Assembly (NCBI GenBank): GCA_041662745.1
Contig: JBAZRV010000004.1
Span: forward strand, 6,315-70,314
DNA length: 64,000 nucleotides
Direction: 5' to 3'
Source: Patescibacteria group bacterium
Lineage (GTDB): Bacteria; Patescibacteriota; Patescibacteriia; 2-01-FULL-39-33
The translations under genes and the position numbers were made by a program. A model generated the notes under the pieces. The model did not search any database and had not been told where the DNA came from. It was given only the letters and a program-made list of their open reading frames with translations. Of this stretch, positions 2,701 through 52,481 are shown one piece after another. How positions within the stretch are numbered: the first letter of the stretch is position 1; each line of letters opens with the position of its first letter.

Positions 2701-3348
2701 CTACAATTCCTTAGTTGACTTAATCCAGCCGCCGAGCATTCGGCCGACTTCATCGACATCCTGTTGCAATGTCACGTACTTATTAGCCGCTAAGGATTTA
2801 GTTTCTTTCATCAGCCGCAAGAATATCCTGAGGAAATTCAGCTTTAAGCTGGCTTTTTGCAAAACCGGCAGCTTGTCTGTTTTGGACAGCTGGCTGGCCA
2901 GCAATATGCTTTCCAAAATATCCAACAGGACATTTTCACAGCGCTGCCACAAAGTGTAGCGGTCTTGCTTAGCCACGCTTTTCCTGAGGATATAAAATTG
3001 CTTGTAGAGATCATAGATTTTTTTAAAGATCGGTATGTCAAAATCTTCCATATAATTATGAAAATTTATAAAGATATTTATAATGAGATGATTTCCCTGG
3101 AGAATTTGTTTTCCGCCTGGGATAAGTTCAAGATTGGCAATTTTTGCTGGAGTTGGATTTTCCTGATCAATGCTATAATAATTATTATATGCGATTAAAA
3201 CTAAACGCCCATCATCACCCCTTAATATTTTTAAAAGACCCAACTCTTGGTCAAGAATAATCTGACCTACAAGATTAAATTCAGTTATTTCGAATGATAC
3301 AAATTCATCCATATAATTATAATTAATACCTGTATTGAATATTACCAA
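2701..3348 (-). CDS. avd: Avd-like four-helix-bundle protein (23S rRNA IVS protein family) with an in-frame 99-aa N-terminal extension. The Avd module probably starts at the internal Met (2701-3051).
   Basis: The C-terminal 116 aa (IFKKIYDLYKQFYILRKS...DEVGRMLGGWIKS) resemble the four-helix-bundle/Avd family. It is paralogous to ORF 52348-52869 (NEIGRMLGGWRKR). It lies convergent with and immediately downstream of TR1. Confidence 0.6.
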   Translation of the reverse strand: MVIFNTGINYNYMDEFVSFEITEFNLVGQIILDQELGLLKILRGDDGRLVLIAYNNYYSIDQENPTPAKIANLELIPGGKQILQGNHLIINIFINFHNYMEDFDIPIFKKIYDLYKQFYILRKSVAKQDRYTLWQRCENVLLDILESILLASQLSKTDKLPVLQKASLKLNFLRIFLRLMKETKSLAANKYVTLQQDVDEVGRMLGGWIKSTKEL

Positions 3349-3460
3349 AAAATCGCCATTTAGGCGATTTTATTTAGCTAACAAAATAATATACATATAC
3401 TATTTGAGTCGCCCCACCATCATAGGACGGTGAGTCGGCTCCGATACTTAGTTCTACTAC

Positions 3461-3562
3461 CGGTGTGTTTACAAAAAAATTCGAACCGATTTCACCCCCA
3501 AAAATTGATGAGCGGGCGGATTTCCTCCCCCAACCCCTCCATCCGCCCGCCCTTTCGGATTT
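3461..3562. repeat. Inverted repeat IR-A, left arm of a perfect 102-bp pair. The right arm is 5069-5174.
   Basis: An exact reverse-complement match of about 102 bp (GGTGTGTTTACAAAAAAATTCGAACCGATTTCACCCCCAAAAATTGATGAGCGGGCGGATTTCC...) flanks the HTH and 378-aa genes. Confidence 0.85.
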
Positions 3563-3569
3563 GCGATTT

Positions 3570-4706
3570 TCAGTTTTTCTTTGGCGACAAATTCTTTTTT
3601 TCTAGCATTCTTACCACCTTAAAATCCGTAGTGATTATTGGAATATTACTTGGTATGACATCTAATATTTCTTGTGGTATCTGCTCAATATCTTTGTTGA
3701 TAACAACCGCTACAAAATCTTTCGGTGATATATTACCAATTACTCCCATATCACCCTCACTATTTTCTAATGGCCCTAGAGTATGATGTTTGTTTGGGAC
3801 TTTAAATAAAATTGATAAATCATCCCAAAAGTATTTTTTCATCTCACCGGTTTGTTCATAATCGCTTTTTACTAACTCTGGTGGATAGGTTGAAATCATG
3901 TTGGTTCCAAAAAGTAAATCCGCCATATTCCTAAAGGGGTCATCATATATTTCGAAATCCTCTTTATTTTTAGGCTCCCATCGGCTTCTCCAATTTTCCT
4001 TTTTCAAACGTTCAAATGCAAACTTAGCTAGAGGTGAACTAAAAAAATATGTCTTTATAGACTGATACACCTTATCAGTTGTTTCTTTTTTTCTTTCATC
4101 TCTTATTTCTGGCGTAACCAATAACCAGTCTTGAGCGTAATCTTCTTGTATCGTTTCAATCAAGATATTTGAAAATTCATCGCTGTTTACCATTTCGTCG
4201 TAACTTATGCTATCTAAATTAGCTCCATCGTGAACCCTTTTGTCTAAAAAGATCGACATTGCGCGAATCATCGATTTGCCAAGCTTTCCCCGCTCATGTT
4301 GTACTTCTGGACCATAGCCACCAATAGGAAAATTAACAGCATAACCCTCTTTTTGTAATCGAATTTTCCGATGGCTCAAAATTCCTTGCCCAAAATAACT
4401 TTTTAATTTATTTAAAAGTTCCTCTATTCGCACAATATCTTTTTCATTACGATCTTCAGGCGCTGCATTCAACATCTTAATTAGTCCTCCTACGAATCTA
4501 TAGCCACTGTGCTGAGCAACCTTCCTATCGGAAATTAATTGTTTAATTTCTTCAATTAATATTCTCTCATTTTCTTCTCTTTCATTATTATTTAAATCAG
4601 GACTTTCTCCGCTCATTAGCCCATCAAAACCCGCCTCATTTTCAGTTGGATACTCAAGGCCTTGAATAAAATCTTCTTCTTGTTTTGGTTGCTCGAGTTT
4701 TGGCAT
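3570..4706 (-). CDS. Hypothetical protein, 378 aa, acidic, with no recognisable motifs. It is cargo of the IR-A cassette.
   Basis: Complete ORF directly downstream of the HTH gene, with a 5-bp gap between them. It has no RT or nuclease signature I can recognise. Confidence 0.5.
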   Translation of the reverse strand: MPKLEQPKQEEDFIQGLEYPTENEAGFDGLMSGESPDLNNNEREENERILIEEIKQLISDRKVAQHSGYRFVGGLIKMLNAAPEDRNEKDIVRIEELLNKLKSYFGQGILSHRKIRLQKEGYAVNFPIGGYGPEVQHERGKLGKSMIRAMSIFLDKRVHDGANLDSISYDEMVNSDEFSNILIETIQEDYAQDWLLVTPEIRDERKKETTDKVYQSIKTYFFSSPLAKFAFERLKKENWRSRWEPKNKEDFEIYDDPFRNMADLLFGTNMISTYPPELVKSDYEQTGEMKKYFWDDLSILFKVPNKHHTLGPLENSEGDMGVIGNISPKDFVAVVINKDIEQIPQEILDVIPSNIPIITTDFKVVRMLEKKNLSPKKN

Positions 4707-4711
4707 ATTTG

Positions 4712-4924
4712 TTATTTTATTAAATCATCAACCGTAACCCCTAACCCTTTGGCAATTTTTGCCATAGTTTCAATCGTGGGATTGGGCGTAGCCCCCGATT
4801 CAATTTTAATTATTACATTATAAGCAATATCAGCCCTTTTCGAAAGTCCATCTTGAGAAATACCTAGTTTATCTCGGCATTTTTTAATATTCCTGGCTAT
4901 TGTTGGCAATTCACTTTGTTTCAT
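4712..4924 (-). CDS. XRE-family helix-turn-helix transcriptional regulator, 70 aa
   Basis: ARNIKKCRDKLGISQDGLSKRADIAYNVIIKIESG is a typical HTH_XRE (Cro/C1) motif. It sits upstream of and is co-oriented with the 378-aa ORF. Confidence 0.7.
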   Translation of the reverse strand: MKQSELPTIARNIKKCRDKLGISQDGLSKRADIAYNVIIKIESGATPNPTIETMAKIAKGLGVTVDDLIK

Positions 4925-5068
4925 AGTATAATTATACTAGTATAGTAGTTAAACAAGTTTTACTACTATAACTTTATCAAAATTCATGGATTTTATCAAT
5001 AATTTTTTTAAGCCCGCTTTTGGCCAAAATGAAGTTCGAGCCGATATTTTTTCCAGGTTCTTTGGCGG

Positions 5069-5320: not shown

Positions 5321-6823
5321 ATGAAGTACTTTATTTACGCTCGCAAGTCCACTGACAGCGAAGAACGGCAGATCTTAAGCATTGAATCCCAGATTGCTGA
5401 GTTGTATGAATTTGCCGCCAAAGAAAAACTGGAAATCGCCGCTTCGCTGTGCGAAGCGAAAACCGCCAAAGAACCTGGCCGAACTGTGTTCGGAGAAATG
5501 CTGGATCGGATTTGCGCCGGCGAAGCCGGAGGAATTTTGGCTTGGCACCCGGATCGGCTGGCTAGAAATTCAATTGACGGAGGCAAAATCATTTATCTTT
5601 TGGACACAGGCCAGATCAAAGACCTAAAGTTTCCCACATTTTGGTTTGACAGCACACCGCAAGGAAAATTCATGATGAACATTGCCTTTGGCCAAAGCAA
5701 GTATTACATCGACAATTTAAGCGAGAATATACGGCGAGGCCATCGGGCTAAACTAAGAAAAGGGATTTGGCCAGTCTTTGCCCCGCTTGGCTATCTAAAT
5801 AATCACAGGACCAAAGGCATAGAATTAGACAGGGAAAGGGCGCCTTTGGTCAAAAAATGCTTTGAGCTATACGCTACGGGCGAATATACCCTCAAAGCCC
5901 TAAGAGATGTAATCAGCCAAGCGGGGCTAAGAAGCTACCGAGGCAATGTTCTGGCCGTGGCCTGTGTCCAAAGAATGCTCAAGAACTCGATCTACTATGG
6001 CCTATTCAAATTTAACGACGAATTGCATGAGGGAACGCACGAGCCGATTATTTCCAAGAAACTTTTTGATGAAGCTCAACAAGTAATGAGTAATCGAGGC
6101 AAGAAGAAACGAAAGCGAAAACACGAATTTGCTTTTTCTGGATTAATGAAATGTGGGGTCTGCGATTGCCTCATAACGGCGGAAAAACAAAAAGGCCATA
6201 ATTACTATCGTTGCACCAAGAAAAAACAAACCTGCGACGAAAAATGTCTGCGCGAAGAATTACTTGTTGAACAGATGAAAGAGATAATTCAAAAAGTTTC
6301 TTTGCCTGACGATTGGGCAAAAAATATGCTCGCCGAGATTGAGTTGGAACGAGAACAAGCAAGAAAAGACGGCATGATTTTTGGGCAAAAACTGGAAGTG
6401 AGAAAAACAGAAATCGAGCAAACCATGGAACGACTGCTTGATTTGTTTATTGAAGGCAAGCATATCGAGCCAGAGGAATATCACGCTAAAAAACAAAAAC
6501 TTCTCATCGAGAAGTGTGAGCTTAATCAACAAATCAAGGATTTTGCCCAAAAAGGAAATAATTGGCTCGAACCCATGAAAGAAATGATTTTAGCCAGCAG
6601 CCAAGCCAAAATTCTATTGTCGCGAGGCGACAATTCGCAAATCCGAGCATTTCTAAAAAATATCGGCTCGAACTTCATTTTGGAAGCCAAAAAATTTGAA
6701 TTTCAGGCCAAAACTGGTTGGCGAATTCTGAAACTTCTGCCCGAAAATTGGGCAAATACCGATTGGCGGAGAGAGAGGGATTCGAACCCTCGGTACGCCC
6801 ATAATAGACGTACAACGGTTTAG
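5321..6823 (+). CDS. Large serine recombinase: resolvase/invertase catalytic domain, recombinase domain and zinc ribbon. The C-terminus is encoded within IR-B and the tRNA-Ser 3' end.
   Basis: N-terminal YARKSTDSEERQILSIESQ...HPDRLARN is a serine-recombinase catalytic motif. CGVCDC...YYRCTKKK is a Zn ribbon. The ORF reads through the IR-B right arm into the tRNA. Confidence 0.8.
   Translation: MKYFIYARKSTDSEERQILSIESQIAELYEFAAKEKLEIAASLCEAKTAKEPGRTVFGEMLDRICAGEAGGILAWHPDRLARNSIDGGKIIYLLDTGQIKDLKFPTFWFDSTPQGKFMMNIAFGQSKYYIDNLSENIRRGHRAKLRKGIWPVFAPLGYLNNHRTKGIELDRERAPLVKKCFELYATGEYTLKALRDVISQAGLRSYRGNVLAVACVQRMLKNSIYYGLFKFNDELHEGTHEPIISKKLFDEAQQVMSNRGKKKRKRKHEFAFSGLMKCGVCDCLITAEKQKGHNYYRCTKKKQTCDEKCLREELLVEQMKEIIQKVSLPDDWAKNMLAEIELEREQARKDGMIFGQKLEVRKTEIEQTMERLLDLFIEGKHIEPEEYHAKKQKLLIEKCELNQQIKDFAQKGNNWLEPMKEMILASSQAKILLSRGDNSQIRAFLKNIGSNFILEAKKFEFQAKTGWRILKLLPENWANTDWRRERDSNPRYAHNRRTTV
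6683..6769. repeat. Inverted repeat IR-B, right arm. It overlaps the 3' end of tRNA-Ser by 6 nt.
   Basis: Exact reverse complement of 5172-5258. Confidence 0.85.
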
Positions 6824-6858
6824 CAAACCGCCGCCTTCAGCCACTCGGCCATCTCTCC
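6764..6858 (-). tRNA. tRNA-Ser (anticodon GCU) with a long variable arm
   Basis: The reverse complement reads GGAGAGATGGCCGAGTGGCTGAAGGCGGCGGTTTGCTAAACCG...GGGTTCGAATCCCTCTCTCTCCGCCA. The anticodon loop is TT-GCT-AA, and CCA is encoded. Confidence 0.8.
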
Positions 6859-41890: not shown

Positions 41891-41962
<72 letters not shown>

Positions 41963-42425
41963 AAAACATGGCATATGGCTAATGGCATATAACTTATGGT
42001 TTAATTATTAACTATAAGCTATGTGCCATTTGCTATGCGCTATCTGTTGACTGGCTCGGTTGTGAACCAGCCAATATCAAGTATTATAAGGTATTTTGAG
42101 GAATTTGTCAAAGGCCGGTTTGAGGCCTCTTGGTCTAGGGGAAAATGCGACAAATGCGACAGTACTTTGGCACTTCCAATTTTATAATTCTGAAGGGTTA
42201 AATGAGACAAATGAGACACCTATAGTGTGTTTTGAAAATAGTATCAAAAGCACGTTTTATGTTTAATTTTAGATTAAAATTTGATGAGACAGCCCGATGA
42301 TGATTGTCTCATTTGCTAAATGCGATTTTTGCCAGCTCTTGACAGAATTTGAGCTTACATTTATGATTAAACATCTAGTTGTATTTGCGCTACTACCAAA
42401 TTATTTGTTATAATATAGTCAACCT

Positions 42426-42962
42426 ATGAATATTCCCCTAGTAAAATTAAAAGCAATCCTTTTGTACTTCGGGACATTTACTGAACAACGTTTTCTCGGC
42501 AAGGTAAAACTCATGAAGTTATTCTACTTCTTGGATTTTATGCATGTCAAAAAATTCGGTTCTCCGGTAACTTACGATAATTATATCAAACTAGAGCATG
42601 GGCCCATTCCCTCTGCAATAAAGAACATGGTAGACACTGCGGAGGATGATGTGGATAATTCAGTCTTGTCTGATACTATAAAAATTGAAATGGCTGACGG
42701 AGAAGGAATCCATAGAATTGTCGCTCTAAGAAAGTTCACTGAAAATGACAAAAAATATTTCACGCCGACAGAAATTAATATACTGGAAACCGTAGTAGAA
42801 AGATTTGGTAGCAAGAATACGAAGTTCATCGAAGACGCCTCTCACAATGAAGCCCCCTGGAAAGAGACTTCATTTATGGATTCAATTCCGTATTGGCTGG
42901 CTACGCATGATAATGACTGCCAGGTAAGCAGGGAGGAAATTGAGTTAATGTTGTCAATCTAG
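42426..42962 (+). CDS. Panacea-domain (DUF4065, SocA-like) protein, a putative antitoxin
   Basis: KLMKLFYFLDFMHVKKFGSPVTYDNYIKLEHGPIPS matches the DUF4065/Panacea core. Confidence 0.55.
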   Translation: MNIPLVKLKAILLYFGTFTEQRFLGKVKLMKLFYFLDFMHVKKFGSPVTYDNYIKLEHGPIPSAIKNMVDTAEDDVDNSVLSDTIKIEMADGEGIHRIVALRKFTENDKKYFTPTEINILETVVERFGSKNTKFIEDASHNEAPWKETSFMDSIPYWLATHDNDCQVSREEIELMLSI

Positions 42963-42966
42963 CCAT

Positions 42967-43359
42967 ATGGATGCTTTACTATTCGGCGATATATTTAGAT
43001 TTAGGGAGGAAGAATATGTCTACCTGGCTTCAGGCGACGGAGTCGATTTTGCGGCCAGAATCCTCAATACTTTTAATACCAACCAAATAGTGGAGTTGGA
43101 TAACCGAAAGGCAATGGGCCATGGCGCAAACAGGACTAATAGCAATCCGCTTTATTGCTATGTTATTTTGCAGACGGATGAATATAAGAATCAAGCAGCG
43201 CACTTCAAGGATAGCCAATATGATTCCGGCCGGCTAATGTTCGAAAAAACCGGTTCGTTATGCGCTGAAGACCAACAGGAAATCAAGAAGAAAATAATTG
43301 ATCCAGCCAGTCCGATCCCATTGGGTCTTAGAGATATAATTTTAAACATGGATATATAG
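42967..43359 (+). CDS. Hypothetical 130-aa protein, a candidate toxin partner of the Panacea-domain protein
   Basis: It starts 4 bp after the Panacea ORF stop and is co-oriented with it. No recognised domain. Confidence 0.4.
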   Translation: MDALLFGDIFRFREEEYVYLASGDGVDFAARILNTFNTNQIVELDNRKAMGHGANRTNSNPLYCYVILQTDEYKNQAAHFKDSQYDSGRLMFEKTGSLCAEDQQEIKKKIIDPASPIPLGLRDIILNMDI

Positions 43360-43458
43360 AAACAGATAAAAAAAGACATCCTGCGAGGGATGTTTTTTGA
43401 TTAATTGACCGATAGTTAGCCATCATATATAATTAAGCTATCACCATGAAAGAAACCC

Positions 43459-43674
43459 TTATGCAGATCCGTCTGCCTCGGGGGTTTTTTCTTTTTGGCC
43501 GATAAACAGGTAAATATAGGCGGCTTGGAATTTTTGGCTGAGCCAGCCGTGGAATTTTTTGTAATCAATGGCAAATCCCAGCTCCTGGGCGCTGCGGTAA
43601 AGGTTATTGCCGTCGATGTAAATGTTGATTTTGGACATGAGATTATGATATCGGGCTATAAACATGACAATCAA
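43459..43674 (-). pseudogene. N-terminal fragment of a NYN/LabA-like domain gene
   Basis: INIYIDGNNLYRSAQ...YIYLFIG aligns with the N-terminus of the full NYN protein at 50866-51402 (AFIDSNNLYQS...FLFIGF). The fragment breaks off after 71 aa. Confidence 0.5.
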
Positions 43675-43680
43675 ACTAAT

Positions 43681-45690
43681 TTATTTAACTTTAAATTCCC
43701 TAGCTTGTTCTTTTTCTGTCCTTTGCCATTTTTCAAATTCAACTGGAATACCATTTTCTCTCCAAAACTCAGCCCAATCTTTATACGCCTCAATTAGATA
43801 GGGAAATCTTCCAATTTTTCTTGCTGCACTCCTTGCATAACCATCGCTTAAATAAAAATCTCTAACCAACTTTTTTTGTGACGCCACGATTTCGCCAACA
43901 TCCACGGAGGATTCAATTGTCGGCGCCTCTTGGTCTAACACCTCCCATTCATCCCATCCCTCGCTTATCAATTCATCAAGTGTTTTATCAGTATCAATAA
44001 TTTCACCATTAGCATCATTATATTTTAATTTTGCAGTCCTTCCTAGAGCTGTTTCTGGGTATGGCGTTTCTGGGGCGACTCTTATATGATCAATTTCTAA
44101 AAATCTCTCTCTTTCTCCATCTCTTAATCCAAATCTTTCTGCAACTAAATCAGATAGCTCTGTTGCCGTATAAGTATTGGCATTTTCTCCCTCTTGTGAC
44201 GATTCAGCTTGTCTATCAAAAATAAATTCCACTGCCTGGCGGAGAAGTTCATAATCAGAAAAAAGCTGTTTTGGAATCTCCAGTTCTAACAATACTCTTG
44301 CCTTTTGCTCGAATAATTCGTCCTGGTTTTCTCTGCCCCAAACAAAATATCCTCTAGTAAACATTCCAAGGTCGCTTGATCGTTTTAATGACCAAACAGC
44401 ATTAGTATATTTTTTTATACCCTCCTGCATTAACTTCTCTCTATCAGCTTCTCCAGTCGGCCTTTTAAGGTTAACCACGTCAATGGGATTAAATGCTTCT
44501 ATTCCTATTCCAATTTTAGAACAACCAGATTTTTTCATAAGCTCCAAAACCTTCTCCGCTTTTCCGCTTACTATTTCCTTTTCGTCGAAAGCTCTTGCCA
44601 GACAAAACCAGTGCACCAATTCTTTATCCTCATCGCTGAATACGCCACTTTTAATCATTTTCAAGCATAGGTCTTCGACATGCTGAATATTTTCGTTAAA
44701 AGTCAAATCTGCAAAATATACAAAATTTGTCCTATATTCAGGATCATCATGATATTTCTTTATTTCAGTGACTATCGATTTCGGATCCCTATACTTTACT
44801 GGCGTTCTATACCTACCACTGCCAGTATCCTCGCCCCAAACCATGGGAGAACTGCAAAACTCACAATTACCTGGGCAACCGCGACAGGAAGAAATCTGAA
44901 TTTCACCTCTTATCTCCTTATGAGAAGGAAAACTACCAAATTGAGTACAGTCTACACTTGAAGGCACCTCCTTAACACCTTCAACCACCCCGTCATTATT
45001 TTTGACGGGAACAACGATCCTCCTATACGCTTCAGGCAATACTTCGAGTTCCTTGTTGGTCATCCTTTTTCTCGGTCTGAATTCATTTACGGCCCCATCC
45101 TCTCTATAAATAATTCCCTCAACTCCAGAAAAATCAGCTTGCCCTTCTTCAACTTTTTTCGCTAATTCTAAAATAGTTTCCTCACCCTCTCCAATAACAA
45201 AAAAATCGACTAAACTAATATTGTCTCCTAATTCTTTTTTCAATTCCTCTTCCCAGGCATTATATTTTTTACTTAAATAAACTTTATCTTTCATGGCAGA
45301 TATATGATAGCCGCCGATTACAATCTTTATTTCTGGATCAGCTTCTTTAATTTTTTTAGCGATCTGCAATGCGCGGTTAAACAGCGGAGTAATAGCACTA
45401 ATTCCAACCATCATACAATCTCCCTGCCTTTTAATGACTTCAGCAATATCTTCGTCAGTTATGTTTATGGGTTCTTCGCCCTCGGGAGTTCCGTCTAACG
45501 CAATCTCGATGTGTTTTCTTTTTACTGGCCTTTGATGAATTAGAGAAACATCAAAACCTCCTCGATCTTTCAAAAATCCTCCTAGTGTTTCTATGGCATA
45601 TGGAGGAGCCTGATTGCCCCTTTTTGCTGGTTCTGGTGTAAAATTCATGCCACCTATGGGCTCAATTAAAATAACTCTTGATTTTGGCAT
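43681..45690 (-). CDS. B12-binding-domain radical SAM protein with a 200-aa C-terminal extension
   Basis: An N-terminal B12-binding-like region is followed by CPGNCEFC (CxxxCxxC). The C-terminal 200 aa has no match I can recognise. Confidence 0.65.
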   Translation of the reverse strand: MPKSRVILIEPIGGMNFTPEPAKRGNQAPPYAIETLGGFLKDRGGFDVSLIHQRPVKRKHIEIALDGTPEGEEPINITDEDIAEVIKRQGDCMMVGISAITPLFNRALQIAKKIKEADPEIKIVIGGYHISAMKDKVYLSKKYNAWEEELKKELGDNISLVDFFVIGEGEETILELAKKVEEGQADFSGVEGIIYREDGAVNEFRPRKRMTNKELEVLPEAYRRIVVPVKNNDGVVEGVKEVPSSVDCTQFGSFPSHKEIRGEIQISSCRGCPGNCEFCSSPMVWGEDTGSGRYRTPVKYRDPKSIVTEIKKYHDDPEYRTNFVYFADLTFNENIQHVEDLCLKMIKSGVFSDEDKELVHWFCLARAFDEKEIVSGKAEKVLELMKKSGCSKIGIGIEAFNPIDVVNLKRPTGEADREKLMQEGIKKYTNAVWSLKRSSDLGMFTRGYFVWGRENQDELFEQKARVLLELEIPKQLFSDYELLRQAVEFIFDRQAESSQEGENANTYTATELSDLVAERFGLRDGERERFLEIDHIRVAPETPYPETALGRTAKLKYNDANGEIIDTDKTLDELISEGWDEWEVLDQEAPTIESSVDVGEIVASQKKLVRDFYLSDGYARSAARKIGRFPYLIEAYKDWAEFWRENGIPVEFEKWQRTEKEQAREFKVK

Positions 45691-45888
45691 ATGAGAAATT
45701 AACTATTATTTCCTATATTTTACTACCTTTTAAGTCCTATTGCAAACTTAAAACTTATCAACTCTTTACCTACTCCAACCATCCTGGACTCCTCAAGAGG
45801 GTTGCGTCATCAATGTCCATAGTAATAACCAAAAACTATAGACAACAACCAAAAATCAAGGGTTTCAAGTGATTTTCAAGGCGATTTA

Positions 45889-47151
45889 GTGCCACTTAAG
45901 TACTGCCTTTATGCCAGAAAATCGACCGAGGCCGATGACAAGCAAGTGTTATCCATCGAATCCCAAGTCAAAGAGATGCTGGCTCTGGCTAGCAAGGATT
46001 CCTTAGATGTAGTAGAAATCAAGCGGGAAGCCCACTCATCTAAGGATGTTGGCCAAAGGCCGATTTACAACGAAATGATTTCTGAAATCAGAGCGGGCAA
46101 GTTTAACGGCATTCTGACCTGGGCGCCGGATCGGCTCAGCCGCAATGCCGGAGATTTGGGCTCAGTTGTGGATTTGATGGATCAGAAACTACTTTTGGAA
46201 ATCAGGACGTATGGCCAGAAGTTCAGCAATAATCCCAATGAGAAATTCCTGTTAATGATTTTAGGCAGCCAAGCCAAGCTGGAAAATGACAATAAAGCGA
46301 TTAACATTAAAAGAGGACTCCGAACCAGGTGCGAAATGGGCTGGCGGCCGGGCGTGGCTCCGACCGGATACTTAAATGAAAAACACGCCGACAAAAAGTG
46401 CCAATCCCGATTAGATCCCAAGAGAGCTGTCATTATCAAAAATATGTTCGAGAAATCGGCTAATGATAATTGGAGTGGCCGAAAAATCTACAGATGGCTT
46501 CGCGAGATTGACTTTAGAACTAAGACCGGCAAGCGATTAGTTTTGGCCAATGTCTATCTGATTTTAAGAAATCCATATTACTACGGTGAATTTGAATTCC
46601 CGGTGGGTAGTGGTAATTGGTACAGTGGCAAACATACGCCGATTATCACTAAGGAACTATTCGACAAAACGCAATTAGCCCTTAACGACCACAATCTACC
46701 TAAGACCGAGAGCAAGGAATTCGCCTTCACTAAACTAATTAAATGCGGCTATTGCGGTTCGGGCATTTCGGCTGATGAGAAATTCAAGAAGCTTAAAAAC
46801 GGCGGCACTAACCGCCATGTCTATTATTTTTGCTCCAAGGCCAGAAATATAGATTGCAAAAATCAACCGATTAATGAAACCAACTTAATCACTGAACTGG
46901 CCGGCTTAATCGATCGGATCAGCTTGGATGAACTGGGCGTCCAGCAGAAAATTGAGGATGAATTCAAAAGATACAACAAATTCAGAATCAGCGTGCTGGG
47001 TAAAAAGAATGAGGAATGCAATAGCGAAGTGGACATCAAGAATTTCGTCAAATACCTACTTAAAGACGGCACGATTCTGGAAAAACGAGAATTGCTTGCT
47101 TGCCTTAAAAGCAGATTGATCCTAAAAGACAGGCAAATCAGTTTGGAATAA
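45889..47151 (+). CDS. Large serine recombinase, 420 aa
   Basis: YARKSTEADDKQVLSIESQ...APDRLSRN catalytic motif and a C-terminal CGYCG...YYFCSK Zn ribbon. Confidence 0.8.
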   Translation: MPLKYCLYARKSTEADDKQVLSIESQVKEMLALASKDSLDVVEIKREAHSSKDVGQRPIYNEMISEIRAGKFNGILTWAPDRLSRNAGDLGSVVDLMDQKLLLEIRTYGQKFSNNPNEKFLLMILGSQAKLENDNKAINIKRGLRTRCEMGWRPGVAPTGYLNEKHADKKCQSRLDPKRAVIIKNMFEKSANDNWSGRKIYRWLREIDFRTKTGKRLVLANVYLILRNPYYYGEFEFPVGSGNWYSGKHTPIITKELFDKTQLALNDHNLPKTESKEFAFTKLIKCGYCGSGISADEKFKKLKNGGTNRHVYYFCSKARNIDCKNQPINETNLITELAGLIDRISLDELGVQQKIEDEFKRYNKFRISVLGKKNEECNSEVDIKNFVKYLLKDGTILEKRELLACLKSRLILKDRQISLE

Positions 47152-47164
47152 ATCTAAAACTAAA

Positions 47165-47192
47165 AATACCGCGGAAAAACCGCGGTATTTTG
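47165..47192 (+). terminator. Rho-independent terminator after the recombinase gene
   Basis: AATACCGCGGAAAAACCGCGGTATTTT. Confidence 0.65.
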
Positions 47193-47241
47193 TGGCTAAA
47201 TCAGTGATACCTCTCGGTCATTTGACTTAGCATAAGCGTGT

Positions 47242-47314
47242 TGCGGGGGGCGGATTCGAACCGCCGACCTCTTGGTTATGAGCCAAGCGAGCTGCCGGAC
47301 TGCTCTACCCCGCG
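47242..47314 (-). tRNA. Initiator tRNA-fMet (CAU)
   Basis: The reverse complement reads CGCGGGGTAGAGCAG...GGCTCATAACCAAG...GGTTCGAATCCGCCCCCCGCA, with the C1:A72 mismatch typical of bacterial initiator tRNA. Confidence 0.8.
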
Positions 47315-47359
47315 ATAATATTTTATTTTCCCTCTCTCCTTAAAAAGATGAGACTGGTG

Positions 47360-47441
47360 TGCCCGAGGAGAGACTCGAACTCTCACATATTGCTATACAC
47401 GATTTTGAGTCGTGCGCGTCTACCAGTTCCGCCACTCGGGC
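47360..47441 (-). tRNA. tRNA-Leu (CAA)
   Basis: The reverse complement reads GCCCGAGTGGCGGAACTGGTAGACGCGCACGACTCAAAATCGTG, followed by a long variable arm and GAGAGTTCGAGTCTCTCCTCGGGCA. Confidence 0.8.
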
Positions 47442-47446
47442 CTGAG

Positions 47447-47685
47447 TTATAACAAACTTTTTAACCATTCTTTACCACAACCTGACTTTAAATATTTTTC
47501 TCTTTGTCTTGCATCTATTCTCGTACTATACTTTTCTGTTATAATCATTTTAAATGGTCGATAAAATCTTGTTGTCCTCTCTCGTCCATTATTGTGGCGA
47601 CTAAATCTGTCATCAAAATCAGAGGTTTGACCGACATAAATATAATTATGTTTTATACTTTGCAAGGCATAAACAGTATACTCCA
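47447..47685 (-). CDS. GIY-YIG nuclease-superfamily protein (YhbQ/UPF0213-like), about 79 aa from the internal Met
   Basis: MEYTVYALQSIKHNYIYVGQTSDFDDRFSRHNNG...REKYLKSGCGKEW. The ORF-track start at 47749 lies inside the tRNA-derived sequence. Confidence 0.6.
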
Positions 47686-47699
47686 TAAGAAAAATATTT

Positions 47700-47755
47700 A
47701 AAGTCGTGCGCGCCTGCCTGCCGGCAGGCAGGTCTACCAGTTCCGCCACTCGGGC
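47700..47755 (-). other. Duplicated 5' half of tRNA-Leu (pseudo-tRNA or att-like remnant) carrying a 19-nt palindromic insertion
   Basis: The reverse complement reads GCCCGAGTGGCGGAACTGGTAGAC[CTGCCTGCCGGCAGGCAGG]CGCGCACGACTT. Outside the insertion it is identical to tRNA-Leu positions 1-37, and it ends inside the anticodon loop. Confidence 0.7.
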
Positions 47756-50865: not shown

Positions 50866-51402
50866 TCATTTGTGTTTATTTTTATACTCCAACTTACCTT
50901 TCAAAACATTCAAAAAAATCAAGATATTATTTGCCGGAGAACTTAAGCGATCCAAAAGACAAGAATAATTATTTTGATTCGGAATTAACACTCTCTTGAG
51001 TTTTGCGTTATTGATCAGATATTCTACCAAACAATAAAAATCACCATCACCGGAGACAATAATGGCCTTGTCATAATTAGAGTGTTCAATCATAGTATGC
51101 AATACCAATTCGGCATCTACATTACCCTTAACCGTACCATCGGCTAATTCCAGCGTCGGTTTAAACACGCAAATATAGCCATACTCCTGTAATTTTGTAT
51201 ACATCGCTTGATTGCCGGGTTTAAAGCCAATGAACAGGAAGGCCTTTTCAATGCCATATTTATCCTTAAGATAAACCCTGAATCTTCTATAATCAAGTTG
51301 CCAGCCGGAATAAATTTTCCGGTCTTTTTTATAAATGTCTTTTGACAAGCTTTGATATAAATTATTGCTGTCAATAAAAGCGTAATTTTTTTCTTGCGGC
51401 AT
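50866..51402 (-). CDS. NYN (LabA-like) domain protein
   Basis: YAFIDSNNLY...IIVSGDGDF, an NYN/PIN-like core. Confidence 0.55.
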   Translation of the reverse strand: MPQEKNYAFIDSNNLYQSLSKDIYKKDRKIYSGWQLDYRRFRVYLKDKYGIEKAFLFIGFKPGNQAMYTKLQEYGYICVFKPTLELADGTVKGNVDAELVLHTMIEHSNYDKAIIVSGDGDFYCLVEYLINNAKLKRVLIPNQNNYSCLLDRLSSPANNILIFLNVLKGKLEYKNKHK

Positions 51403-51422
51403 ATTATTTTATATAGATAATC

Positions 51423-52481
51423 TTAGCAAGTATAAGCCAAATTAGCAATTTTTCGTTGTAACTTATAGCTCTGGCCGTGACTCAATAAACCCAAATATGA
51501 ATTTATGGTCTCCAAACTATGGTTTCCTCTCACTCGCCTGAACATTCTTCTTTTACTCGTCGTCCGAAACACCCGATGGTCAAAAAAAGTCACCCAGCCA
51601 AGAAAGTCCAAACCGGAGTTCAGGGTTTTAATGAATAACTTATCAGGATGAAGCATCAGCTTCATTTTATCTCTCAAATATTCATCAATTATTGGAATAA
51701 TATTTTCCAAATATTCTTTATCGTCAGCCATAATCACGAAATCATCGGCATAACGGATATAATGCTTGACTTGCAATTTATGTTTGACGAATTGATCAAA
51801 CTTGTTCATGTAAATATTAACCAAGAGTTGTGAGGTCAGATTGCCTAATGGCAGACCCCTACCACCGCCATTATTCCCACTCTCCCTCTTGTCATTCCCG
51901 CGGAGACGGGAATCCAGGTTATCTTCAATATTATCAAAACTGTCAATTACTTCATCCAATAATCCTAAAATACTTTTATCCGGGATATACTCGGCCAGAA
52001 TCTCTTTCAATATCCTATGGTCAATATTGGCAAAAAATTTCCTGATGTCACCCTTCAAAATCCAGCAAGTGCGGGTATTATTTTTGCTGGCGGCATAAGC
52101 GAATTCCCTGAACCGAGCCAGGGCCTTGTGCGTGCCCTTGCCCAGTCGGCAAGAATAGGAATCGGCAATGAAAGTCCGATCAAAAAACGGATACAAAATC
52201 CGATAAATCGCATGGTGAACCAATCTATCGCGGACAGACGCCTTATGAATTTGCCGCGGTTTGGGATCGCAGATCTTAAAGGCCTGGTAGCCGCCGTGGC
52301 GATAAACACCGGTTGCCAAATACCGATGCAATGCGATAAGATTATCCATGAGGCGCAATTGGAATTCCTGCGCGTCTTTTCTGCCCCTTTTGCCCCTGAC
52401 AAATTCCTGCCAAGCCAATAATAAATTATCAAGACAAATAATATCTTCAAAAGTATGGCTCAATTTGATTTTCCCGTTCAT
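51423..52481 (-). CDS. Diversity-generating retroelement (DGR) reverse transcriptase. It contains an in-frame MITE-like insertion.
   Basis: YADD box (YIRYADDFVIM). Motif 4 is LGNLTSQ, the DGR-type I/LGxxxSQ rather than the group II QGxxxSP. SYSCRLGKGTHKAL motif. There is no room for intron domains V/VI. TR, avd and VR are adjacent. RBS AAAGGA precedes the ATG at 52481. Confidence 0.75.
   Translation of the reverse strand: MNGKIKLSHTFEDIICLDNLLLAWQEFVRGKRGRKDAQEFQLRLMDNLIALHRYLATGVYRHGGYQAFKICDPKPRQIHKASVRDRLVHHAIYRILYPFFDRTFIADSYSCRLGKGTHKALARFREFAYAASKNNTRTCWILKGDIRKFFANIDHRILKEILAEYIPDKSILGLLDEVIDSFDNIEDNLDSRLRGNDKRESGNNGGGRGLPLGNLTSQLLVNIYMNKFDQFVKHKLQVKHYIRYADDFVIMADDKEYLENIIPIIDEYLRDKMKLMLHPDKLFIKTLNSGLDFLGWVTFFDHRVFRTTSKRRMFRRVRGNHSLETINSYLGLLSHGQSYKLQRKIANLAYTC

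Follow-up and report, generated by a model that had tools for sequence, protein, structure and literature searches.

We analysed a 64,000-nucleotide stretch of the Patescibacteria group bacterium contig JBAZRV010000004.1 (referred to below, at its full length, as the window) and found that it carries a two-gene cassette which we read, with a probability of about 0.65, as a type II PanA-PanT toxin-antitoxin (TA) system. A 178-amino-acid (aa) standalone Panacea (DUF4065) protein, here called PanA, is the presumed antitoxin. The 130-aa product of the following gene (the partner) is the presumed toxin, probably a divergent protein of the MazF/CcdB fold. PanA-PanT systems, in which Panacea antitoxins are combined with 88 toxin clusters, were defined by Kurata et al. 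2022 in PNAS (PMC8832971). The cassette would be bicistronic cargo of a segment of this Patescibacteria chromosome that is low in G+C and carries a recombinase gene. An earlier note on this DNA had proposed the two genes as a candidate TA pair, and this proposal gained support: a TA cassette agrees with the way the genes are arranged, with genomic contexts that vary and with a partner that has occasionally decayed beside an intact Panacea gene. The coordinates of all features are collected in Table 1.

The first gene had been described as encoding a DUF4065-like protein, and the profile search suggested in the earlier note bore this out. The Pfam model PF13274 (SocA_Panacea) matched the panA product over its full length (model positions 1-113 of 113, E 3.1e-19) with 70.4 bits against a gathering cut-off of 25.7 bits. 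The product also matched PHROG 1281 (phrog_1281, E 3.2e-18). A search returned 611 close homologues that are 60-71% identical to PanA and, wherever they are named, assigned to Patescibacteria, and among the matches listed PF13274 was present in 120/120 PanA homologues. NCBI annotates the Panacea protein with 149 aa, versus 178 aa for the open reading frame (ORF) in the window. Because the homologues are 178-182 aa long and K7, L8, K9 and F15 are invariant among them, the 178-aa start is the conserved one. Within the stretch L56-E57-H58-G59-P60-I61-P62, the residues G59-P60-I61 correspond to the Panacea 'GPV' signature; G59, P60 and P62 were invariant, and I61 nearly so, in 52 aligned homologues. 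This motif has been reported as critical for neutralisation (PMC8832971).

The AlphaFold2 (AF2) model of PanA is a single compact domain which includes both termini, with a predicted local distance difference test (pLDDT) score of 94.7 and a predicted template-modelling (pTM) score of 0.91. It contains nine helices, a beta-hairpin at residues 53-62 and a second hairpin at 85-100, and no helix-turn-helix (HTH) or other added domain. The Panacea domain has been described as compact and mainly helical, with alpha1-alpha7 and beta1-beta2 (PMC10440598). No sequence relative of PanA was found among PDB sequences. In the PDB the model had a sole notable fold match, to the DarTG complex of M. tuberculosis (chain B, 7yk3_B; E 0.027, probability 0.97, template-modelling (TM) score 0.45-0.48), and this model-based match hints that a solved antitoxin chain may share the Panacea fold.

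The partner ORF begins 4 bases after panA. It had been noted as lacking a recognisable domain, and this proved correct for the protein, which had no match in Pfam, PADLOC, PHROGs or NCBIfam, as well as for its relatives: 106 homologues shared no common family in the same four collections. A weak match to phrog_4622, a PHROG of unknown function, was seen in 5/106 family members (best E 5e-4). Judging by phrog_1281 and phrog_4622, distant relatives of both PanA and the partner may be phage-borne. In a k-mer-indexed search the partner looked like an orphan, with only itself and one 66% identical relative returned. This was overturned by an exhaustive HMMER search of a database of 1.84 billion representatives, which gave at least 262 clusters (50% identity) at E<=1e-3 and 140 at E<=1e-10. 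The 66% identical relative lies on a 599-bp contig (L004), alongside the C-terminus of a Panacea gene.

Members of the partner family are single-domain proteins of about 125-135 aa, all of them unannotated. Their alignment (A2, 106 sequences) contains the motifs FGD(V/I)F.Y.E.EYVFLA, YAA.IL, LYCFV.L.T..FK.R.AH and L...D...IK.EI. L68 does not vary in it, conservation is 99% at G7, T70 and D102, and the conserved polar set consists of D8, T70, R/Q76, H79, D102, K107 and K/R122. The family profile found nothing significant among PDB sequences, MazF chains included. The partner is predicted to be soluble, with a maximum 19-residue hydropathy of 0.87 and no transmembrane-like stretch; being soluble and acidic, it was ruled out as a membrane toxin.

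We surveyed the pairing of the two genes from both sides. Alignment A3 of 52 close homologues, used as the seed on the Panacea side, retrieved 80 metagenome loci. A partner-family ORF or its remnant was found directly downstream, on the same strand, in 78/78 of those with downstream sequence, and the remaining two contigs break off within the Panacea gene or where it ends. When the partner was used as the seed, Panacea was found immediately upstream in 7/7 distinct places. The pair is also present in two reference-genome loci (L005 and L006: Minisyncoccia and Candidatus Microgenomatus), which came from a single-protein query scan and give no measure of how frequent the cassette is in reference genomes. 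The 130-aa ORF is thus conserved beside Panacea genes elsewhere, as the earlier note had supposed for a true pair. A 4-nt overlap was the commonest spacing of the two genes, with most others at 0 to +9 nt, which is typical of translational coupling. In about 90 loci the pairing was 1:1, with no partner swapping seen. No third gene recurred in these loci, the largest flanking family being common to 4 of them at most.

The surroundings of the cassette are unrelated between genomes and its distribution is patchy. It was found among ParE/Phd, PIN and NYN genes (L009), in phage-like surroundings that include RecT and Mom (L011), next to a serine recombinase (L134), next to a tyrosine integrase (L136) and among glycolysis genes (L138). 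In Candidatus Giovannonibacteria (L139, JAUYMO010000020.1, 2456-3765) it lies within the S10 ribosomal-protein operon, between L3 and L4. The cassette behaves as an autonomous, mobile two-gene unit. Small HicB-like and DUF5678 genes stand beside the L139 cassette, a striking insertion site for TA-type cassettes, and L009 and L027 have GIY-YIG genes in the vicinity of the cassette. Phage carriage of the cassette was considered and rejected: the viral contigs of IMG/VR yielded one Panacea protein only, 30% identical and followed by an unrelated ORF. Apart from one homologue labelled Nanoarchaeia, all those with an organism name belong to Patescibacteria lineages, to which the cassette is apparently confined.

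Structure prediction of the 130-aa protein, as proposed in the earlier note, gave a confident model (pLDDT 90.8, pTM 0.83). The model opens with three strands at the N-terminus, continues with a helical hairpin (35-59) and four more short strands, and closes with the helices 100-111 and 119-126. When it was compared to the PDB with Foldseek, the top 50 matches were all MazF or CcdB (best E 0.018, probability 1.00), though weak ones, with target-normalised TM scores of 0.55-0.60. 'PemK-like' and 'Endoribonuclease' were the top named matches in BFVD. On the strength of this model we consider a MazF/CcdB-like fold, an SH3-like barrel with a C-terminal helix, likely. Besides a predicted core fold that probably matches, the partner shares its small size and its TA operon context with MazF/PemK/Kid (PF02452) and CcdB. 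By eye, its N-terminal 'GD(I/V)F' strand and C-terminal 'L..eD...IK.eI' helix resemble the 'GD(I/V)' strand and the helix of MazF, a visual likeness to which hhalign lends no statistical support. It differs from these toxins in its antitoxin, which is a Panacea protein rather than MazE, PemI or CcdA, and in its extra helical elements, namely an insertion of ~25 residues that forms the helical hairpin (35-59) and an extra C-terminal helix.

Panacea antitoxins with MazF-like toxins are known. Three of the toxin clusters of Kurata et al. (T5, T6 and T25) are MazF/PemK-like by HHpred or CDD, with HHpred probabilities of >99% for T5. The T6 and T25 representatives have no CDD match, inhibit translation and are neutralised by PanA via complex formation, and the MazF/PemK-like PanA-PanT pairs of P. 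moraviensis and B. ruminantium have been validated (PMC8832971). The cassette in the window resembles these systems in several respects: a small toxin gene follows the antitoxin gene no more than a few bases later; conserved-domain searches find no match for the toxin, and structure-level methods lead to the EndoA/PemK/MazF fold; the Panacea protein is a standalone one without HTH; and the context is mobile and patchy. The claim of a novel toxin made in the earlier note stood in part. The family is unannotated at the sequence level, but its AF2 model resembles MazF/CcdB, and because PanA proteins with MazF-like toxins that lack conserved-domain matches have already been published (PMC8832971), the novelty is that of a new, putative toxin family and not of a new kind of system.

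Several results weigh against a PanA-PanT cassette with a MazF/CcdB-fold toxin. Comparison of the partner family with MazF/PemK by hhalign gave probabilities of 0.6% with a 4-sequence profile (whose MazF identity a PDB search confirmed) and 0.2% with a 15-sequence profile, made of the same four and 11 annotated plasmid PemK/MazF toxins. In this respect the partner differs from T5, and its helical hairpin and extra C-terminal helix set it apart from the MazF/PemK-like clusters T5, T6 and T25, with which it was compared by description only. A Pfam match to PemK (PemK_toxin) or CcdB was found in 0/106 partner-family members. The partner is acidic (isoelectric point (pI) 4.8, family median 5.7), which gives no support for an RNase. 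Finally, the conservation of the two genes is reversed, with Panacea more conserved than the partner in 100% of 3,062 comparisons.

The first of these results were followed to the level of single residues. R25-P26 are invariant in the MazF alignment, as are G18, E20 and Q79, and none of these residues has a counterpart in the partner alignment; the conserved Arg-Pro and GxEQ motifs of MazF are missing from the family. The catalytic residues tested were the Arg-Pro pair (EndoA R25-P26, MazF R29-P30) and the threonine (T48/T52). T70 of the partner is 99% conserved, its equivalence to the MazF threonine being unproven. With negative hhalign results, no Pfam match and the motifs missing, membership of the partner in the PemK/MazF sequence family was rejected, and MazF activity is not transferable to it. 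In ~0.83 Mb of fetched loci a MazF homologue was likewise absent. The acidic pI does not exclude an RNase, because the computed pI of B. subtilis EndoA is 5.1; with CcdB at 6.1, pI was uninformative as a discriminator between an RNase and a protein-binding toxin. The target of the toxin is the weakest step of the PanA-PanT reading. The partner might, tentatively, be an endoribonuclease whose catalytic constellation differs from that of MazF; a mode of action like that of CcdB, through binding to a protein target, seems unlikely.

We then compared the evolution of the two genes over 79 complete pairs. Mean pairwise identity was 62% for Panacea and 33% for the partner. Many type II pairs have the opposite pattern, with the antitoxin less conserved. 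The difference seen here suggests that PanA is constrained by something besides its fast-evolving partner. Identities of the two proteins were correlated (r = 0.44). For pairs with unsaturated synonymous divergence, the ratio of non-synonymous to synonymous substitution rates (dN/dS) was 0.04-0.13 for Panacea and 0.05-0.26 for the partner, with the dN of the partner about 2-3 times that of Panacea. Since these ratios span 0.04-0.26, both are real genes under purifying selection.

Strong conservation of PanA would be expected from contact with a conserved host protease. SocA, from the type VI TA system SocAB of Caulobacter, has a Panacea domain and serves as a proteolytic adaptor (PMC8832971), and PanA could in the same way deliver its partner to ClpXP or another protease instead of inhibiting it through binding alone. 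The cassette has the Panacea domain of the antitoxin in common with SocAB, and the unusual conservation of PanA, compared with that of its partner, would be in line with a further conserved surface for interactions. However, PanA scored 13.2 bits against the SocA equivalog NF047745 of NCBIfam, far below its cut-off of 190, and the partner is unrelated to SocB, having no detectable similarity to annotated families. Nothing suggests protease dependence here, and for the PanA pairs tested elsewhere neutralisation was independent of ClpXP and Lon and the complexes could be pulled down (PMC8832971). We therefore regard an adaptor role of this kind as very improbable.

The constraint, which is much tighter on PanA than on the partner, would also be in keeping with a sensor. 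Standalone Panacea neutralises directly according to Ernits et al. 2023, and Panacea has been proposed as a sensor where other domains neutralise (PMC10440598). In such a defence system Panacea would sense a phage-derived or stress cue and the rapidly evolving MazF/CcdB-fold partner would be the effector, set free or switched on by the cue and acting by abortive infection. Neighbours of the TA or defence type in some genomes (the ParE/Phd, PIN and NYN genes of L009 and the HicB-like gene of L139) agree with it, but no PADLOC model matches either protein and no trigger is known. The idea overlaps with the PanA-PanT reading, from which it differs in biological role alone, and sequence does not separate the two; we consider it unlikely. 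The same low standing is given to a combination of these elements, in which a Patescibacteria-specific TA or defence family with skewed roles has Panacea as its slowly evolving core, either a sensor or an adaptor to a conserved host component. The MazF/CcdB-fold partner, having lost the MazF catalytic apparatus, would then act on a new target that changes fast, such as a protein encoded by a phage or by the episymbionts' host, and one partner family would have been kept across the radiation, in contrast to other PanA lineages. Were this true, the loci would provide natural co-evolution data on toxin recognition and control by Panacea.

In 3/78 loci the partner was disrupted while the adjacent Panacea ORF was intact and of full length. 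Two partner genes have an internal deletion and a frameshift (L018 1236-1700 and L067 811-1120) and one has a TAA nonsense codon (L063 1793-2182). Decay of the partner beside an intact PanA fits a harmful partner and is taken as a hint only, the asymmetry being limited by a sampling of loci that favours intact Panacea genes. These decayed copies also speak against a non-toxic pair, i.e. a conserved complex with a regulatory or structural role in the Patescibacteria cell in which Panacea is used outside TA systems. So do the neighbours, which are unrelated between genomes with no flanking family in more than 4 loci, and the insertions next to recombinases, integrases and other TA genes or into a ribosomal-protein operon, which is the behaviour of a selfish mobile cassette; moreover, the partner has no structural relatives other than toxins. 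A non-toxic role would account for the strict 1:1 pairing in ~90 loci, which departs from the 'hyperpromiscuous' picture of Panacea, and for a PanA identity of ~62% across Microgenomatus, Minisyncoccia, Saccharimonadales, Vogelbacteria and Giovannonibacteria. It would agree, too, with a partner without recognisable MazF catalytic motifs and with the eight PanT candidates of Kurata et al. that were non-toxic in E. coli (PMC8832971). On balance we give it little credence.

Under the preferred PanA-PanT reading, panA and the partner gene would be co-transcribed from a promoter at or near the candidate upstream of panA to the hairpin behind the partner (Table 1). The 130-aa protein would arrest growth, and PanA would neutralise it by direct binding through the Panacea core. 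Experiments on other standalone PanAs have demonstrated direct neutralisation (PMC8832971, PMC10440598). If PanA were lost, degraded or triggered, the toxin would be freed, and this could either stabilise the mobile segment by addiction or abort a phage infection.

New here are the presumed toxin family, its apparent restriction to Patescibacteria, a pairing that is strictly monogamous and a reversed pattern of conservation. The word 'Patescibacteria' was not found in the text of PMC8832971 or in the parts of its supplements that were covered, nor in PMC10440598, and no paper pairing 'Patescibacteria' with 'Panacea' appeared in the literature searched. Should the partner prove toxic, the PanA-PanT network would gain a very widespread toxin family that has so far gone unannotated and whose cognate PanA accounts for >600 clusters. 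Many 'hypothetical' genes of Patescibacteria, whose genomes are tiny and whose selfish and defensive cassettes are poorly catalogued, would then receive a family name. With strict one-to-one pairing, natural sequence pairs of PanA and its presumed toxin are available by the dozen, and the markedly slower evolution of PanA in them is unusual. Such pairs could help to distinguish direct neutralisation from a sensor role of Panacea, an open question (PMC10440598). Otherwise this is an ordinary accessory-genome cassette of a general type already described.

Table 1. Features of the cassette and of the surrounding segment (window coordinates).
Feature	Position	Strand	Basis or remark
panA, 178-aa standalone Panacea (DUF4065) protein, presumed antitoxin	42426..42962	+	PF13274 match, AF2 model
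130-aa partner, presumed toxin (PanT-like)	42967..43359	+	Unannotated family; predicted MazF/CcdB-like fold
Sigma-70-like promoter candidate, TTGACA, 17-nt spacer, TATGAT	42339..42367	+	58 nt upstream of panA start codon
Hairpin ACATCC-TGCGAG-GGATGT with A-run/T-run flanks, candidate terminator	43376..43393	.	17 nt past partner stop codon; sequence and scan
tRNA-Met(cat), left limit of low-G+C segment	41890..41962	-	tRNA prediction, Rfam
NYN-domain gene remnant (probable), 71 aa	43459-43674	-	PADLOC NYN 1.3e-05, Pfam 0.018
B12-binding radical-SAM protein, 669 aa	43681-45690	-	Between NYN remnant and recombinase
Large serine recombinase	45889..47151	+	Resolvase 1.4e-18, Recombinase 1.4e-13, Zn_ribbon_recom 2.8e-07
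tRNA-Met(cat), second and different, right limit of low-G+C segment	47240..47314	-	tRNA prediction, Rfam
tRNA-Leu(caa)	47359-47441		Beside right tRNA-Met

The promoter candidate agrees with 11/12 consensus positions and is a consensus match alone, in a region where the count of promoter-like sites is not above shuffled expectation. On the + strand the downstream hairpin is followed by the T-run TTTTTTG, and the scan reports the same stem on the - strand. By its sequence it is a candidate bidirectional intrinsic terminator that would close the bicistronic unit.

The cassette had also been placed in a tRNA-bounded island next to a serine recombinase. Between the two tRNA-Met genes the order is panA-partner, NYN remnant, radical-SAM gene and serine recombinase, and G+C is 0.37-0.40 across 42001-46000 compared to about 0.45-0.48 in the flanks. 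The segment therefore has a recombinase gene, a compositional deviation and a tRNA-Met at both ends, all features of integrative islands, and an island is plausible. The placement is subject to some qualification: the recombinase lies 2.5 kb from the pair, past the NYN remnant and the radical-SAM gene, and no att-like direct repeats were found flanking the segment. The sole flanking repeat found was between the two tRNA-Met genes themselves, whose 3' 43 nt (T-arm region) are 81% identical. Rfam returned tRNAs only, and a look-up of the neighbouring ParA found no island-free variant. A public contig from an independent assembly of another sample (L002) spans exactly window positions 41936-47294, from inside one tRNA-Met to inside the other, and the ParA contig (L154) stops at 41935. 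These ends suggest branching of the assembly graph at both limits of the segment.

The two genes between the cassette and the recombinase deserve a comment. The 71-aa NYN ORF matches just the N-terminal part of NYN/LabA-like nucleases and is probably a truncated pseudogene; public annotations have at this position an ORF of 100 aa on the opposite strand, without a family match. In the radical-SAM protein ~240 C-terminal residues are without a family match, and the gene was seen beside the cassette in this element only.

Two repeat structures were seen in and around the 460-bp spacer between the left tRNA-Met and panA. The motif AAATG[AC]GACA is clustered at 42137-42325. It forms two tandem doublets (42143-42161 and 42200-42218), 57 bp apart and each preceded by AGGG; an inverted copy stands at 42305-42314, and 42284 and 42318 are the sites of half copies. 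The 64-kb window has five exact matches in total, none of them outside this cluster. As a cassette-conserved operator the array was rejected: it is absent upstream of PanA in 72 other loci, so it belongs to the segment and not to the cassette. It could represent binding sites for a regulator or recombinase. In viral contigs the doubled motif gave 41 scattered matches. The second structure is a 40-nt imperfect inverted repeat (41962-42049; 75% complementary, 8-nt spacer) with ATGGCATAT-like units, which adjoins the tRNA-Met 5' end at the left edge of the low-G+C segment.

Beyond the right tRNA-Met, the 5' end of the tRNA-Leu(caa) gene is duplicated (47402-47441 and 47696-47755); the copies share 24 nt exactly and another 23 nt at 83% identity. 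Between them lies a 100-aa GIY-YIG ORF (47447-47749, - strand) with an annotated N-terminus that extends across the tRNA-like copy, which gives the impression of a small GIY-YIG element that has inserted into a tRNA gene or next to it. Two more patches of low G+C, at 3001-5000 (0.34-0.35; near a tRNA-Ser at 6764-6858) and 51001-52000 (0.37), again compared to about 0.45-0.48 for most of the window, may be other acquired segments.

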